From the UHGV virus genome UHGV-0038965: DNA of 27,823 bases. One strand, written 5' to 3'. This DNA is from a virus. A program made the position numbers and the translations under genes. The notes under the pieces are model-generated. The model worked only from the letters and a program-made list of their open reading frames with translations. It made no database searches and had not been told where the DNA came from. Shown in pieces: positions 6,486 to 17,891 of this stretch (position 1 is its first letter; each line of letters starts with the position of its first letter).

Positions 6486-6782
6486 TTATACCTCTGAATC
6501 AATATCAACCTGATGGTGAGCAATGGTTTCAACCATGTACCGGATGTGTTCCGCCATGCGCTCCTGAAACTCAACATCGTCATCAAATGCACGGGTAATG
6601 GCTTTTTTGCTGGCCCCGTGGCGTTGCAAATGATCGATGCATAGCGATTCAAACAGGTGCTGGGGCAGGCCTTTTTCCATGTCGTCTGCCAGTTCTGCCT
6701 CTTTCTCTTCATGGGCGATCTGCTGGTAGTGACGCGCCCAGCTCTGAGCCTCAAGACGATCCTGAATGTAATAAGCGTTCAT
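6486..6782 (-). CDS. gam: Gam (RecBCD inhibitor), 98-aa short form
   Basis: [60 protein letters not shown]... matches the C-terminal 98 residues of lambda Gam (GamS). The ORF track reports no longer in-frame ORF, so the long form appears absent. Confidence 0.93.
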
Positions 6783-6857
6783 GGCTGAACTCCTGAAAAT
6801 GGCTGTGAAAATATCGCCCGCGAAATGCCAGGCTGATTAGGTAAACAGGAAAGGGGA

Positions 6858-7148
6858 TTAGTGATTCAGACCGTTGCCGCGCCCGTCGAGAAAAACTTCC
6901 ACGAGCAAGTCACGGGTATAAGTGCGCTCGATGCCGCGATGCAGATAAAGCCGTCCGCGTAAATTAGCTGATGCAGTCCAGGTACCATCTTTGTGTTTGA
7001 CCAGCATTCCTGGCATGACCGCACCGCGATTAACGGTCTGCGTTCCGTAATGTTGATGAACCATAAAAACTCCTGCCCGTAAGCTGGGCTGCTGAACATA
7101 TAAAGACTTCTGCGCGTATTCAGGCGGTGGATGGCCGCCGGTTGTCAT
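6858..7148 (-). CDS. Hypothetical protein (96 aa), first ORF of the leftward early operon in the position where lambda has N
   Basis: ORF begins about 190 nt downstream of the putative pL, with GAGG 10-13 nt upstream of the ATG. It has no arginine-rich N-terminus and so is not N-like. It could be a non-coding artefact. Confidence 0.35.
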   Translation of the reverse strand: MTTGGHPPPEYAQKSLYVQQPSLRAGVFMVHQHYGTQTVNRGAVMPGMLVKHKDGTWTASANLRGRLYLHRGIERTYTRDLLVEVFLDGRGNGLNH

Positions 7149-7286
7149 AACTAAGCCGCCTCGTTGAAGCGACTAAGGTATGAAATGTTGAGTTGATTTC
7201 AGCTGGTCACACCGACGTTCACGCGTCCGTTTCATCCCTCGCACTACCCGAAGCCTGCTGAAATTCAAGCTGCGGATCTAAGCGGT

Positions 7287-7336
7287 CATCGCAACGGTGA
7301 AACAGGTGGTTACCGTATCGTTGTGTCGTTGCGATG
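7287..7336 (-). promoter_or_regulatory. Extended stem-loop at the 5' end of the putative pL transcript (candidate antitermination or regulatory RNA element)
   Basis: Perfect 10-bp inverted repeat, catcgcaacg ... cgttgcgatg, enclosing about 30 nt, immediately downstream of the putative pL start. Confidence 0.4.
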
Positions 7337-7339
7337 AAT

Positions 7340-7430
7340 TTATTTAAAACTATAGTTGTTTTATCGTCAACAACAAAAGTTGTTTTATCGGTTGTTTTAA
7401 ATATAACTGGTTGTATTTAGGATGGATTTA
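7340..7430 (-). promoter_or_regulatory. OL/pL region: leftward early promoter with operator repeats
   Basis: The minus strand reads TTGACG - 17 nt - TTAAAT. The spacer carries AACAACTATAGTTTTAA, nearly identical to AACAACCATAGTTTTAA in the cI-cro intergenic region. Several GTTGTT/AACAAC half-sites are present. Confidence 0.55.
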
Positions 7431-7506
7431 TTTTGTGACTTGCATCGCATAGCGATAACTGAAGTGAGGTCGTGGTGGTTTTTTGAACGGTGTGTGATGA
7501 GGGGAG

Positions 7507-7538
7507 GGCAAAATAAAACCCGGCACGGTGGCCGGGTT
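7507..7538 (-). terminator. Rho-independent terminator ending the cI operon (t-imm analogue)
   Basis: On the minus strand, stem ACCCGGC/GCCGGGT with loop, followed by UUUUAUUUU; lies just downstream of the 147-aa gene. Confidence 0.65.
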
Positions 7539-7613
7539 TAGATGATTGGTTAAGAGCGAGGGTAATGGGGAATGAAAAATCGCTTTACCTAATGCAAGGG
7601 TGCGAGCATTTTC

Positions 7614-8057
7614 TTAAGCACTAAAGAAAAAGTACATTGATAGCTTATAAAGTCCTGTTCCTGCAGCGATGATTGCTGGAACACCAAGCAATACCGCAAG
7701 CTTTGCGTCTGAAATCTTTCTATCGACAGCATCACTTGATGGCTTGTTTGTTAAGGATTCTTTTATAGAGTCCAGACGTGCAAGAATAGTTATCATATTT
7801 TTGTCGATAGCTTTAACGTCTGTTTTAAGTTCATCAACGTCTCGTTTGATATGAGCAACATCGGACTCCAGTTTTGCAACTTTTTCAGGCATGTTATCAC
7901 TCCCAGACCCACTGCTACCACTTGATTGTAGCATGTCCCATCTTTTTCCAGATATACCTGCTAGCTGGGAAGACGCACTGGAGTGCAAACAAAATGATTT
8001 TGCCGCCTTTGCAATTTTATCATTTAGGTTTGGAGCTTCGTAATAATCGTGTTTCAT
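7614..8057 (-). CDS. Coiled-coil protein with a C-terminal transmembrane helix (147 aa; an alternative 92-aa form starts at 7892), possibly XhlA-like
   Basis: C-terminal hydrophobic helix LAVLLGVPAIIAAGTGLYKL. The central region (KLESDVAHIKRDVDELKTDVKAIDKNM) is heptad-like. A strong SD, GGGAG, precedes the internal ATG at 7892. AT-rich. Lies downstream of cI on the same strand. Confidence 0.6.
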   Translation of the reverse strand: MKHDYYEAPNLNDKIAKAAKSFCLHSSASSQLAGISGKRWDMLQSSGSSGSGSDNMPEKVAKLESDVAHIKRDVDELKTDVKAIDKNMITILARLDSIKESLTNKPSSDAVDRKISDAKLAVLLGVPAIIAAGTGLYKLSMYFFFSA

Positions 8058-8069
8058 AATTAATTACGA

Positions 8070-8333
8070 TTAGTTTGTTTTAGCTTTGTCATGCTGGTCG
8101 CGAATGAAGTCAGCCAATTTAAGCATCAATTCTTCGGGCATTCTAATGGTTGCAATGTTGTACTTTATGTTCTCAACATCGTCACTTTCATCAACAGGCC
8201 ATTCAGTTACATTATGAAAAAAAGAAATTGAACCTAGGCGCTGAGAGCCGTCACCAAACGAAGAGTAGCCAAACGCGTCGGCGTATGCATCGACACAGTT
8301 ATTTGATTTTTTAACAAGTGTTTTATTACTCAT
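8070..8333 (-). CDS. Hypothetical 87-aa protein with a C-terminal ribbon-helix-helix-like segment
   Basis: The C-terminal TIRMPEELMLKLADFIRDQ resembles the strand-helix start of RHH (CopG/Arc-type) DNA-binding domains. AT-rich. Lies between cI and the membrane-protein gene on the same strand. Confidence 0.5.
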   Translation of the reverse strand: MSNKTLVKKSNNCVDAYADAFGYSSFGDGSQRLGSISFFHNVTEWPVDESDDVENIKYNIATIRMPEELMLKLADFIRDQHDKAKTN

Positions 8334-8415
8334 TTTTTGCCTTTCCCGTAATGTTATTTTTTATAAGGTATTTTCTTCAGCGTATTACCCAAAAGCCTCA
8401 TCAACACGCGGCTGA

Positions 8416-9105
8416 TTATCCGTGTTTTCTGTACGTCTGCGGCATGCTCCCAATAACCTTACCGAATATGAATACCCGGTTCATCTCGTCTTTCTCGATC
8501 GGGTCCCACGGTGAGTAGCTCTTGTTATCAGAGATAACCAGTAGCTTATCCTTCATCATTTGCAGGCGCTTTACATGGGCGGTGTCGTCATACAGAAACG
8601 CATAGATGCCATCACCGTCGAAAGATTTAACAGTGATATCAACGAACAGCAGGTCACCTGGTTCGATCGTCCCTGACATGCTGTCACCTCGCACGTTAAT
8701 GATGCGGATATTTTCCGCCTTCCTGCCATCGAACATGTGACGAGCATCGTCAAACGAGTACTCAACCGAGCGTAGAACTTCTACAAACTCACGGTTGATT
8801 ACACCTGGCCCGGCACTGACTTCTATATCAAGAACGTCAATTTTGAAGTATTTGGAATGGCTGACAGTTGATTGTATTGGTTGCACTGTACTGTCTGACA
8901 TATTTCCAACGCCAGAAGATAACCATTCTGCGCGTACACCCAAAGCGTTCGCGATCTCCACGATTTTAGTTGTTTGGTTAGCTTTCCCTGTTTCGATTTT
9001 CTGAATAGCAGCCTGGCTAACCCCGACCAAATCCCCAAGCGCCTTTTGTGTAAGGCCTCGCGCTAATCTGGCTTCTTTAAGTCTTTCTGAGAGTGTTGTT
9101 TTCAT
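8416..9105 (-). CDS. cI: CI-type prophage repressor (N-terminal HTH-XRE, C-terminal S24 LexA-like autopeptidase), 229 aa
   Basis: HTH segment LTQKALGDLVGVSQAAIQKIETGK; Ala-Gly cleavage site in EVSAGPG; catalytic Ser in GDSMSGTI and Lys in HVKRL. Divergent from cro across an operator-rich intergenic region. Not the lambda-immunity CI sequence. Confidence 0.9.
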   Translation of the reverse strand: MKTTLSERLKEARLARGLTQKALGDLVGVSQAAIQKIETGKANQTTKIVEIANALGVRAEWLSSGVGNMSDSTVQPIQSTVSHSKYFKIDVLDIEVSAGPGVINREFVEVLRSVEYSFDDARHMFDGRKAENIRIINVRGDSMSGTIEPGDLLFVDITVKSFDGDGIYAFLYDDTAHVKRLQMMKDKLLVISDNKSYSPWDPIEKDEMNRVFIFGKVIGSMPQTYRKHG

Positions 9106-9209
9106 AGATCAAATGTACAACCAAGGTTTTATTTCATCAAACGAAAATGGTTGTTGACTAAAAACAACCATAGTTTTAATCTTGATTCGGATTAACCACG
9201 GAGGTTGTT
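9106..9209. promoter_or_regulatory. OR region with divergent pRM and pR promoters and operators
   Basis: Inverted repeat atggttgtt-N7-aacaaccat. TTGACT - 17 nt - TAATCT reads rightward. SD GGAGG precedes cro. Confidence 0.6.
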
Positions 9210-9440
9210 ATGAACCCAGCAATCAAAACAGCGATCAATATCGTTGGTTCACAAAAGAAACTAGGCGATGCCTGCGAAGTTTCACAGCAGGCCGTCTATA
9301 AGTGGCTTCACAACAAAGCAAAGGTATCCCCTGAACATGTCGGCAGCATTGTTACGGCTACTGGTGGAGTTGTGAAGGCATACCAGATTCGCCCGGATCT
9401 TCCGAAGTTGTTTCCACACACCGAAAAGAACGCAGCTTAA
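9210..9440 (+). CDS. cro: Cro-like HTH regulator (YdaS/Cro family), 76 aa
   Basis: Small HTH protein (LGDACEVSQQAVYKWL) divergently transcribed from cI with a strong SD. Unrelated in sequence to lambda Cro; resembles Rac YdaS-type Cro as I recall it. Confidence 0.8.
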   Translation: MNPAIKTAINIVGSQKKLGDACEVSQQAVYKWLHNKAKVSPEHVGSIVTATGGVVKAYQIRPDLPKLFPHTEKNAA

Positions 9441-9509
9441 ATTTCCATTTCACGCTCTTTAACAATAAGCAATCAACTTAACAGTCAATTCAAACTAAAG
9501 GAGTCAATT

Positions 9510-10049
9510 ATGCAACCACTTACATACCAACAGACTAGCGGATTTATTCCGACTGCGGTGATAAATCGTTCTCAAACAAAACAAGCTCCAGGCCACGAAA
9601 AAATCCGTGATGCCGTCCGCGCCTGGTCGGCTGTAGATAATCAGGATGTCGTTGCCGCACTCATTGTGAATGAGTATCGGGAGCAGGGCGACGGCACCAT
9701 CGATTTCCCTGATGATGTCAGCCGTGCACGCCAGAAGCTGTTCCGCTTCCTCGATAACAAATTCGATTCTGAAAAATACCGAAATAACGTGCGTGAACTG
9801 ACCCCGGCAATTCTGGCGGTACTACCGCTGGAATATCGCGGTTACCTGGTTGAGCAGGATAGCTTCATGACTCGGTTGGCTGAAATGGAAAAGGAACTCA
9901 GTGAGGCAAAACAGGCTGTCATTCTCAACGCACCACGCCACCAGAAACTGAAGGAAATGAGTGAAGGTATTGTGTCGATGTTTCGTGTGGACCCGGATCT
10001 GGCTGGTCCATTAATGGCGATGGTGACCACCATGCTGGGGGCAATATGA
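9510..10049 (+). CDS. YdaT-like regulator (functional analogue of CII), 179 aa
   Basis: Lies between cro and the replication genes, with SD AAGGAG. Resembles Rac YdaT-family proteins from memory (LTPAILAVLP motif). Not lambda CII. Confidence 0.55.
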   Translation: MQPLTYQQTSGFIPTAVINRSQTKQAPGHEKIRDAVRAWSAVDNQDVVAALIVNEYREQGDGTIDFPDDVSRARQKLFRFLDNKFDSEKYRNNVRELTPAILAVLPLEYRGYLVEQDSFMTRLAEMEKELSEAKQAVILNAPRHQKLKEMSEGIVSMFRVDPDLAGPLMAMVTTMLGAI

Positions 10050-16648: not shown

Positions 16649-16800
16649 AAAATGGGGCGTTGAAACGCCCCCAAAAATAAAGGGTAATATATAACAGAAG
16701 GTTTGTATAGTTAGAAGCAAGGTTGTGCTTCTAAAGGAAGTGGCTTGAGGGAGCCACTTATATGTTGGGGAGGCAAAGCCTCCCACAACATATCTTTTAG
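16649..16800. terminator. Cluster of four hairpins between convergent Q and the porin gene (bidirectional terminators)
   Basis: ggggcg-ttgaaa-cgcccc flanked by A and T runs; ttagaagca-aggttg-tgcttctaa; aagtggct-tgaggg-agccactt; atatgttgggagg-caaag-cctcccacaacatat followed by cttttag. Confidence 0.6.
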
Positions 16801-16808
16801 TAATCAAA

Positions 16809-17891
16809 TTAGAACTGGTAAACCATACCTACAGCAACGATATCATCGGTAGCAACGCCAGATGCTTTCGTGAAATCGCTCTTATCAATCAGGTTGATTT
16901 TGTAGTCAACAAAAGTGGACATATTTTTGTTGAAGTAATAGGTTGCACCTACATCAACATATTCAACCAGGTCCTGATCACCCCAAACACCCAAGTCTTT
17001 TCCTTTAGAATGCAGGTAAGCAACGGATGGACGCAGGCCGAAGTCGAACTGATATTGTGCAACAGCTTCGAAGTTTTGTGCTTTGTTGGCAATATGGTTA
17101 TTACCAAAAACAGTCATGTTCTGGGTTTCAGAATAGGTGGTGGCCAGATAGATGTTGTTCGCATCATATTTCAGACCAGCTGCCCATACTTCAGCATTTT
17201 GACCAGAAGCATTCAGACCGTTGTTACCGTAGATAACCTGATTATTAGTGCGATCAGATTTAGCATAGGTTGCACCCACGCCGAATCCTTCATACTCATA
17301 AGTAGTTGAGAAACCGAAACCATCGCCATTAGCTTCAGTTACTTCATTTCGGTCATTTTTGCCCTGATACTGAGCTGCAAAGTTCAGGCCATCAACCAGA
17401 CCAAAGAAGTCGTTGTTACGATAAGTTGCAACACCTGTGGTGCGACCAGTCATGAATACATCTGTTTGGGTCCAGGTATCGCCACCGAATTCTGGCAGAA
17501 CGTCAGTCCACGCACCGATGTCGTATGCTACACCGTAGTTACGGCCGTAATCGATTGAGCCGTAGTCACCGAATTTCAGGCCTGCAAATGCAAGACGGGT
17601 TTTGTCTTTGGAGGAACCTTGAGATTCAGCGCGGTTGCCTTTGAATTCATATTCCCACTGACCGAAACCAGTCAGTTGATCGTTGATTTGGGTTTCACCT
17701 TTGAAGCCAAGACGGGCATAAGTAGTATCACCATCATCTGCATCATTAGAGGAGAAGTAGTGCTTAGCATTAACTTTCCCGTACAGATCCAGCTTGTTAC
17801 TGTCTTTATTATAAATTTCAGCTGCCTGAGCAGACATCGCCATCAGTACTGATGCAGCTACAGCAGAAATTGCCACTGTTAATTTTTTCAT
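16809..17891 (-). CDS. nmpC: Outer-membrane general porin of the OmpC/NmpC/Lc family (360 aa), lysogenic-conversion moron
   Basis: Signal peptide [23 protein letters not shown], a C-terminal ...VGMVYQF beta-barrel terminal motif, and overall similarity to enterobacterial porins. Lies opposite in orientation between Q and the lysis genes, as in DLP12 and PA-2. Confidence 0.92.

Follow-up and report, generated by a model that had tools for sequence, protein, structure and literature searches.

Introduction

In phage lambda, the repressor gene cI is followed by rexA and rexB, then by the terminator tIMM and the OL/pL region. RexA measures about 279 amino acids (aa), and RexB is a membrane protein with four helices. 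XhlA (PBSX of Bacillus; PF10779), a protein of about 90 aa in which a coiled coil precedes a C-terminal membrane helix, is encoded in a lysis cassette. In P22 SieB/Esc and the lambda S105/S107 holin/antiholin, a conserved in-frame internal start gives a full-length and a truncated product, one of which antagonises the other. In P22, orf59a-sieA occupies the position downstream of mnt, where sieA is present in only 22 of 66 P22-like phages (PMC10883804). SieA is an inner-membrane exclusion protein with three or four predicted membrane helices and an FxRYPxEAxxFNK motif, and it blocks DNA injection (PMC10883804). Here, we describe a two-gene cassette, A-B, behind the cI-type repressor gene of UHGV-0038965, a lambda-like Escherichia coli prophage; the whole 27,823-nucleotide (nt) stretch that was analysed is referred to as the window. 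Our tentative reading, which we regard as a serious possibility that stops short of probable, is that A-B is an exclusion or abortive-infection module that is expressed in the lysogen and acts at the inner membrane from its cytoplasmic side.

Prophage cargo behind a repressor is a familiar kind of element, whereas the protein families of A-B and their architecture of dual starts and swappable modules are undescribed. An earlier sequence-only reading of the window did not recognise the pair as a described defence system, and the searches bear this out, with no match to PADLOC v2, Pfam or NCBIfam and, in PADLOC-DB v2.0.0, no component match for A, B or the partner variants found in related cassettes. 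Literature searches brought up no paper on the pair, whether by its RefSeq accessions or by ECO26_0580, nor was it found in the DefensePredictor supplements.

Genomic layout of the cassette

The sequence-only reading had placed an 87-aa and a 147-aa open reading frame (ORF) directly downstream of cI, on the same strand and in the slot that lambda uses for rexA-rexB. The coordinates agree with this, as gene A (87 aa) spans 8070-8333 (-) and the long form of gene B (147 aa) spans 7614-8057 (-), with 12 nt between the A stop codon and the long-form start of B. Upstream lies the cI-type repressor gene (8416-9105, -), which encodes 229 aa with HTH_3 and Peptidase_S24 domains (Pfam, 5e-13 and 1e-18, respectively) and is labelled S24 family peptidase in RefSeq. 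The 82-nt spacer between cI and A (8334-8415, -) was both scanned and read directly. It holds a Shine-Dalgarno-like GGAAAGG in front of the A start codon, and on its minus strand the scan detected neither a terminator-like nor a sigma-70-like site. Downstream of B, a 3' untranslated region (UTR) of 74 nt leads to an intrinsic terminator (7507-7539, -) that ends the cI-A-B unit and is equivalent to lambda tIMM. The terminator hairpin (7516-7539, -) consists of a 9-bp GC-rich stem and a subsequent T run, with a fold z of -2.75. The OL/pL region expected beyond the terminator is also found (about 7340-7400, -), with operator-type inverted repeats and a promoter candidate. As the inverted repeat GTTGTT-N7/8-AACAAC is confined to two sites in the 27.8-kb window, 7355 and 9150, these mark OL and OR. 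The pL promoter candidate, TTGACG-17-TTAAAT, was read by eye from the sequence and is not among the output of the promoter scan.

The order on the minus strand is OR, cI, A, B, terminator and OL/pL, followed by kil, gam, bet and exo. Two minus-strand genes, a spacer free of signals that would separate them from cI, and a terminator followed by OL/pL together make this the layout of lambda cI-rexA-rexB-tIMM, and co-transcription of A-B with cI is plausible from the sequence. Like RexA-RexB, the cassette pairs a soluble protein with an inner-membrane protein, and in lysogens both genes presumably share a transcript with the repressor gene. However, searches of A and B against PADLOC, Pfam and NCBIfam revealed no sequence homology to RexA-RexB. 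Unlike the polytopic RexB, B has a single C-terminal helix and a long coiled coil, and its soluble partner A is just 87 aa long.

Selection and recombination

A sister E. coli prophage, L011, served as the reference for the divergence of the cassette. Between L011 and the window, the synonymous divergence (dS) of cI was 0.16, with a ratio of non-synonymous to synonymous divergence (dN/dS) of 0.04. A had a dS of 1.55 and a dN/dS of 0.09 (range 0.05-0.11), and the coiled coil of B had a dS of 2.05 and a dN/dS of 0.05, while the first 55 codons of B evolved under much weaker constraint, with a dN/dS of about 0.5 (0.53). The dN/dS values of 0.05-0.11 indicate purifying selection, and A and B are thus real genes rather than chance ORFs. 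That they are non-functional or mis-called ORFs in the spacer between cI and the terminator would fit their lack of Pfam, NCBIfam and PADLOC annotation. This view is effectively refuted by the strong purifying selection and by the hundreds of homologue clusters with conserved architecture in Enterobacterales and Pseudomonas, and the AlphaFold model of A, with a predicted local distance difference test (pLDDT) score of 78, also argues against it.

The flanks of the cassette are 93-100% identical between the window and L011, whereas the cassette itself, at about 8290-7697, is only 63-85% identical, and identity returns to 98% at the membrane-helix end of B. The alleles of the cassette are thus far older than the immunity region around them, and recombination has exchanged them. 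The separate acquisition proposed in the sequence-only reading is thereby supported, as it is by the contrast between the dS of the cassette (1.5-2.0) and that of the adjacent cI. The base composition on which that proposal had been founded is also confirmed: both cassette genes are poorer in GC (A, 0.390; B, 0.399) than cI (0.467), gam (0.498) and the window overall (0.470).

A stretch covering the cassette 3' UTR and the terminator (7515-7596, -) gave the sole match in an Rfam scan of 6700-9600. This match, to the Hfq-binding small RNA (sRNA) isrJ, is below threshold (21 vs 37 bits, E = 0.89). The stretch is 90-92% conserved between prophages, more than the coding cassette. It is possibly a 3'-UTR-derived sRNA, or else the match arose by chance.

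Protein A

Protein A is predicted to be soluble, with no membrane helix. It belongs to phrog_4231, a family of unknown function, and matched no Pfam family at E<=1, no NCBIfam family and 0 PADLOC families. Its own family is very small. When 1.84 billion representatives were searched exhaustively with a profile, only 8 representatives at 50% identity were recovered, and no remote relationship for A emerged. The invariant residues of A cluster in an N-terminal KKxNNCVDxYADxFGYSSFG segment and a C-terminal 'ATIRMxE...LA.FI' segment. The profile and structure-prediction searches that had been proposed for both proteins returned, among PHROG families, only matches of unknown function, and yielded a predicted fold for A that consists of four beta-strands and one C-terminal helix. 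This fold weakly resembles the sheet-plus-helix folds of COMM, Pur-alpha and PC4, which are dimerising or nucleic-acid-binding folds.

The C-terminal part of A had been read as a ribbon-helix-helix segment (Arc/MetJ/CopG), and this did not hold up. No ribbon-helix-helix profile matched A at E<=1, and in the AlphaFold model 'TIRMPEEL' forms the last strand and the only helix.

Architecture and internal start of protein B

The features ascribed to B from the sequence, a Ser/Gly linker, heptads and a single C-terminal membrane helix, are all present. Residues 1-55 form a variable N-terminal region, in which AlphaFold predicts a short helix (11-24) and a disordered Ser/Gly linker. Residues 56-104 form a coiled coil of seven uninterrupted heptads, in which 14/14 a/d positions are occupied by L, I, V or M. 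Among homologues, a 7-residue indel in the coiled coil leaves the heptad register intact. Next come a KKPS hinge, an amphipathic stretch and, at residues about 118-141 (7635-7706, -), the C-terminal membrane helix, which is delimited by hydropathy, by invariant columns and by an AlphaFold helix at 111-146. Residues 118-136 are the sole hydrophobic segment in B (Kyte-Doolittle 1.80), and L124, P127, G133, T134 and K138 in the membrane helix are invariant. Lacking a signal peptide and extending just about 8 residues past the helix, B is a tail-anchored protein with its bulk facing the cytoplasm.

In profile searches, B matched phrog_3556, of unknown function, at profile positions 128-267 of 276. 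The sequence-only reading had called B XhlA-like, and this stands for the architecture: the short form described below shares with XhlA its size and its succession of coiled coil and C-terminal membrane helix. It does not stand for family membership. B has weak matches to XhlA profiles (phrog_1193, 1.3e-4; Pfam, E = 0.053; 'hemolysin' is the PHROG name of 1193 and 937), and the Pfam match falls short of the gathering threshold (14.1 vs 34.7 bits). Only 4/22 homologues match XhlA, with a best E of 0.004, and several unrelated generic coiled-coil families match the B homologues better than XhlA does. The remaining Pfam, NCBIfam and PADLOC matches of B are sub-threshold hits to generic coiled-coil families (PADLOC E >= 0.0037). 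Unlike xhlA, the A-B cassette stands behind lysogeny repressors.

B contains an internal start codon (ATG 7890-7892) in the long frame, preceded at 7 nt by a GGGAG Shine-Dalgarno sequence (7900-7904, -) that is encoded by the linker codons. Translation from this codon would give a nested 92-aa short form (7614-7892, -) that is identical to the conserved core of the family, and the codon sits exactly at the boundary between linker and core. The site had been pointed out in the sequence-only reading, and it proved to be conserved across loci. The core begins with Met in every homologue bar one, which has a GTG-encoded Val, and in 15/15 loci, including Pseudomonas, the internal start is preceded at 3-10 nt by GGAGG or GGGAG. 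The codons that supply this motif are either GGA-GGN, for glycine, or TCT-GGG-AGT. The long-form starts mostly have a weak Shine-Dalgarno sequence or none, and there is none in the window. The frame upstream of the internal start is open in all loci examined. Gene callers often choose the internal start, which results in database entries of 90-93 aa. We infer that both the 147-aa and the 92-aa product are made.

In having a conserved in-frame internal start that would give a full-length and a truncated product, B resembles SieB/Esc and S105/S107. The sequences are unrelated, however, and the predicted B products differ by the whole 55-aa N-terminal region. The nested start could also be that of an addiction (toxin-antitoxin-like) or lysis-timing module, in which short B would be a small membrane toxin or holin-like protein and long B and/or A the antidote. 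The XhlA-like size and architecture of the core would suit such a module, as would the 12-nt gap between A and B and the long-form start devoid of a Shine-Dalgarno sequence. We consider it distinctly unlikely. None of the cassettes lies within a lysis cassette with an endolysin, as all contexts examined are repressor-downstream, tail-region moron or chromosomal. In addition, a location downstream of a repressor implies expression when lysis must not happen, and partnerless stand-alone short forms in Pantoea (see below) argue against intrinsic lethality.

Genomic slots of the cassette

The placement of the cassette in the rexA-rexB slot holds for the window, and the same cassette family was also found behind many other repressors and behind mnt, which makes the argument from the slot much stronger than the window by itself could. 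At 11 loci, which together carry at least 9 different repressor sequences, it directly follows a cI-type repressor. These loci comprise the window and L011 in E. coli, three repressor alleles in Klebsiella aerogenes (L017-L019), a short CI (L020), Serratia fonticola (L021/22), a metagenome-assembled genome (MAG; L025), Phaseolibacter (L029), Symbiopectobacterium (L032) and Pseudomonas (L034). In P22-like prophages, the cassette comes directly after mnt, whose stop codon overlaps the start of A; this was found in UPF_BP1 (L001), E. coli (L009/10) and Serratia marcescens (L012/13). Tail-region moron cassettes occur in Pantoea, Raoultella and Serratia grimesii, where they lie by DUF6246 and tape-measure genes, in opposite-strand or terminal positions.

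Constant linkage and apparent translational coupling to three unrelated repressor types (cI/S24, short CI and Mnt) might point to a modulator of the lysis-lysogeny switch, with A or B acting on cI, Cro, Mnt or induction, and the weak structural resemblance of A to dimerising or nucleic-acid-binding folds fits this as well. We nevertheless hold such a role to be very improbable, as most phages with the same repressor lack the cassette, the cassette is also found in tail regions far from any repressor, and Pfam detected no DNA-binding family.

The slot behind cI accommodates other gene pairs. Phage IdasGreatGrand (L023 3642-5070) has a cI 99% identical to that of the window, followed in the same slot by the PADLOC candidate system PDC-M11A/B (E = 1e-133 and 7e-52). 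Like A-B, PDC-M11 is a two-gene cargo in an identical position, but its proteins are unrelated (357 + 125 aa), and PDC-M11 itself is merely a candidate. In PhiR68_2 (L024 3612-5067), the cI-downstream slot is filled by yet another, unassigned pair of 341 + 149 aa. The slot is thus a cargo hot spot for known or candidate anti-phage genes.

A similar exchange is seen behind mnt, where the cassettes of UPF_BP1, E. coli L009 and S. marcescens L012 fill the SieA location between gene 16 and mnt/gene 9. The slot by mnt is thus held by relatives of A-B; the window itself is lambda-like. This replacement of orf59a-sieA is compatible with exclusion similar to that by SieA or HK97 gp15, in which B would obstruct the conduit formed by ejection or tape-measure proteins of incoming phages and A would be accessory. 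B is a predicted inner-membrane protein, and the tail-region moron sites resemble those of known exclusion genes. The architecture of B makes such a block of DNA entry unlikely. Just about 8-10 residues of B lie on the periplasmic side, and the variable parts, A and the B N-terminus, are cytoplasmic, without signal peptides or membrane helices. Unlike SieA, B is mostly cytoplasmic and has one helix rather than three, and the FxRYPxEAxxFNK motif is absent from the A and B translations.

Modularity and distribution of the family

The conserved unit of the family is the C-terminal 92 residues of B. A profile of this core found 632 clusters, and the best 120 of these 632 all come from Enterobacterales, none with a Pfam domain. 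In the cassettes, the B-core relative is the second of two genes, and the loci examined share the order of a variable upstream gene, a variable B N-terminal region (35-80 residues), a Gly-rich linker and the core. A-like first genes of 87-113 aa occur in E. coli, Salmonella phage UPF_BP1, S. marcescens, Raoultella and Pseudomonas lundensis. A second class of first genes, of 139-153 aa (class II, phrog_5893), occurs in Pantoea, Klebsiella, S. fonticola, Phaseolibacter and the MAG, and is always paired with short B N-termini and core type 1. Further types of first gene are present in Rahnella, L020 and S. grimesii. In profile comparisons with hhalign, A showed a marginal match to the 88-aa first-gene protein of L020 (E = 0.0027, probability 11%) and nothing with the 93-aa protein of Rahnella.

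Modularity is seen in UPF_BP1. Its A protein is 95% identical to that of the window and its B N-terminus is the same, whereas its coiled-coil/membrane core is different, leaving 35% identity over the whole of B. This shows that gene 1 and the B N-terminus form one module and the core another, with the junction at the linker. The second, UPF_BP1-type core also occurs in the Pseudomonas cassette.

In P. lundensis (L034 2263-3782), a c2-like repressor is followed by an A-like protein of 113 aa (phmmer against A, 1e-5) and a B-like protein of 169 aa with a UPF_BP1-type core and a GGAGG-ATG internal start. The module thus reaches beyond Enterobacterales.

P0070 (134 aa, L009 5001-5405) was considered as a natural A-B fusion and rejected. 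It joins A residues 1-56 to a UPF_BP1-type B core by an in-frame deletion between identical DVENIK codons, which are found in both A and the UPF_BP1-type B, and is a decayed cassette in an E. coli P22-like prophage.

Stand-alone short-form homologues of the B core were found in Pantoea chromosomes (L027 and L030, 3474-3776), between genes for an AraC-family regulator and a formate/nitrite transporter and with no phage genes nearby. These copies may reflect a host origin of the core or may be domesticated.

Among 5426 complete E. coli genomes, 198 (about 4%) carry the full-length cassette, many of them O26/O103 Shiga toxin-producing E. coli (STEC). In several complete genomes, prophages adjoining ybhC are 100% identical to the window over the queried stretch. 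UPF_BP1 is the only carrier among 50,697 sequenced phages.

This distribution bears on whether the cassette serves the host in a way unrelated to phages, as a lysogenic-conversion gene pair for membrane or stress functions, haemolysin-like virulence or another fitness trait. Its frequency in O26/O103 STEC genomes and the ordinary chromosomal neighbourhoods of the Pantoea copies would fit such a role. Morons of these slots are not always defensive, and one entry among the core clusters is titled 'Hemolysin XhlA' by UniRef. We think this explanation improbable. The XhlA match lies below threshold and is no better than those to generic coiled-coil families, and the cytoplasmic bulk of B does not suit a secreted or surface haemolysin. 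Moreover, swapping of gene 1 and the B N-terminus, together with very old alleles beside near-identical repressors, is a pattern typical of conflict systems.

Proposed function

The case for a role of A-B in exclusion or abortive infection draws mainly on the genomic contexts described above. Positions behind three unrelated kinds of repressor, apparent coupling to mnt and tail-region morons point to expression in the lysogen and to an accessory role that is most plausibly anti-phage. Given the tail anchor of B and the cytoplasmic location of all variable parts, intracellular sensing with a membrane end-point is favoured over a periplasmic block of DNA entry.

The cassette would then be an accessory (moron) operon in a cargo slot of the immunity region, read from pRM together with cI, or from Pmnt in P22-like phages. 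Long B may be produced by weak or coupled initiation after A, and the 92-aa form from the strong internal site, and the two could co-assemble through their coiled coil. A and the B N-terminus would act as the specificity or sensor unit, recognising a cytoplasmic component of the infecting phage. The conserved core would be the effector, which may oligomerise in the membrane and compromise it, by Rex-like depolarisation or a premature holin-like lesion. Alternatively, it could block a stage of infection that is associated with the membrane. The short nested product may be either the bulk effector or an antagonist.

Several observations weigh against this proposal. Searches revealed no tie in sequence or structure to characterised defence proteins. 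Guilt by association based on the slot also fits non-defence lysogenic-conversion genes. The AlphaFold model of B is of low confidence (pLDDT 55), and pore formation cannot be concluded from a single, moderately hydrophobic helix. Support for production of the long form of B comes solely from the open frames in all loci and the dN/dS of about 0.5 in its N-terminal region. Finally, the stand-alone Pantoea homologues suggest that the core need not be toxic or phage-directed. The wider proposition, that the cassettes make up an undescribed modular prophage defence family, with a tail-anchored effector in two nested forms and swappable sensors, that can settle behind any lysogeny repressor, is more doubtful than the exclusion or abortive-infection role of A-B itself.

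Other features of the prophage

Divergent from cI, the cro gene spans 9210-9440 (+). In the region 9210-10049 (+), the cro and cII positions hold a YdaS-like (76 aa) and a YdaT-like (179 aa) gene, as in Rac-type immunity regions, and these adjoin lambda-type O and P genes. There is no N-like ORF between pL and kil (6858-7064/7148), at 7150-7335 (-) of the window, the position at which the Klebsiella relative L019 has an N_peptide gene. Several hairpins are predicted in the pL leader of the window, with a z of merely -1.8. Early antitermination in this prophage may be N-independent or RNA-based.

On the plus strand, a terminator-like hairpin with a T run (8406-8425, +) overlaps the cI stop codon. 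For the lambdoid prophage NC-SV, a 2026 paper (PMC12803456) reports that an sRNA, svsR, maps to the 3' end of cI.

An ompC-like porin gene lies just downstream of Q (quuD), at about 16745-17827 (-), a position inferred from the RefSeq annotation of L002. It is likely a further lysogenic-conversion or receptor-modifying cargo of the prophage.

Significance

The same cargo is exchanged between the slot behind cI in this lambdoid lineage and the slot behind mnt in P22-like phages. If A-B is a defence system, it would add to prophage immunity a new type of effector, a coiled-coil protein with one membrane pass, a tail anchor and nested products, and would be a clear natural case of sensor-module swapping at a defined linker. 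With a prevalence of about 4% in E. coli, O26/O103 STEC included, the cassette could affect phage typing, the host range of phages used in therapy, and competition between prophages.

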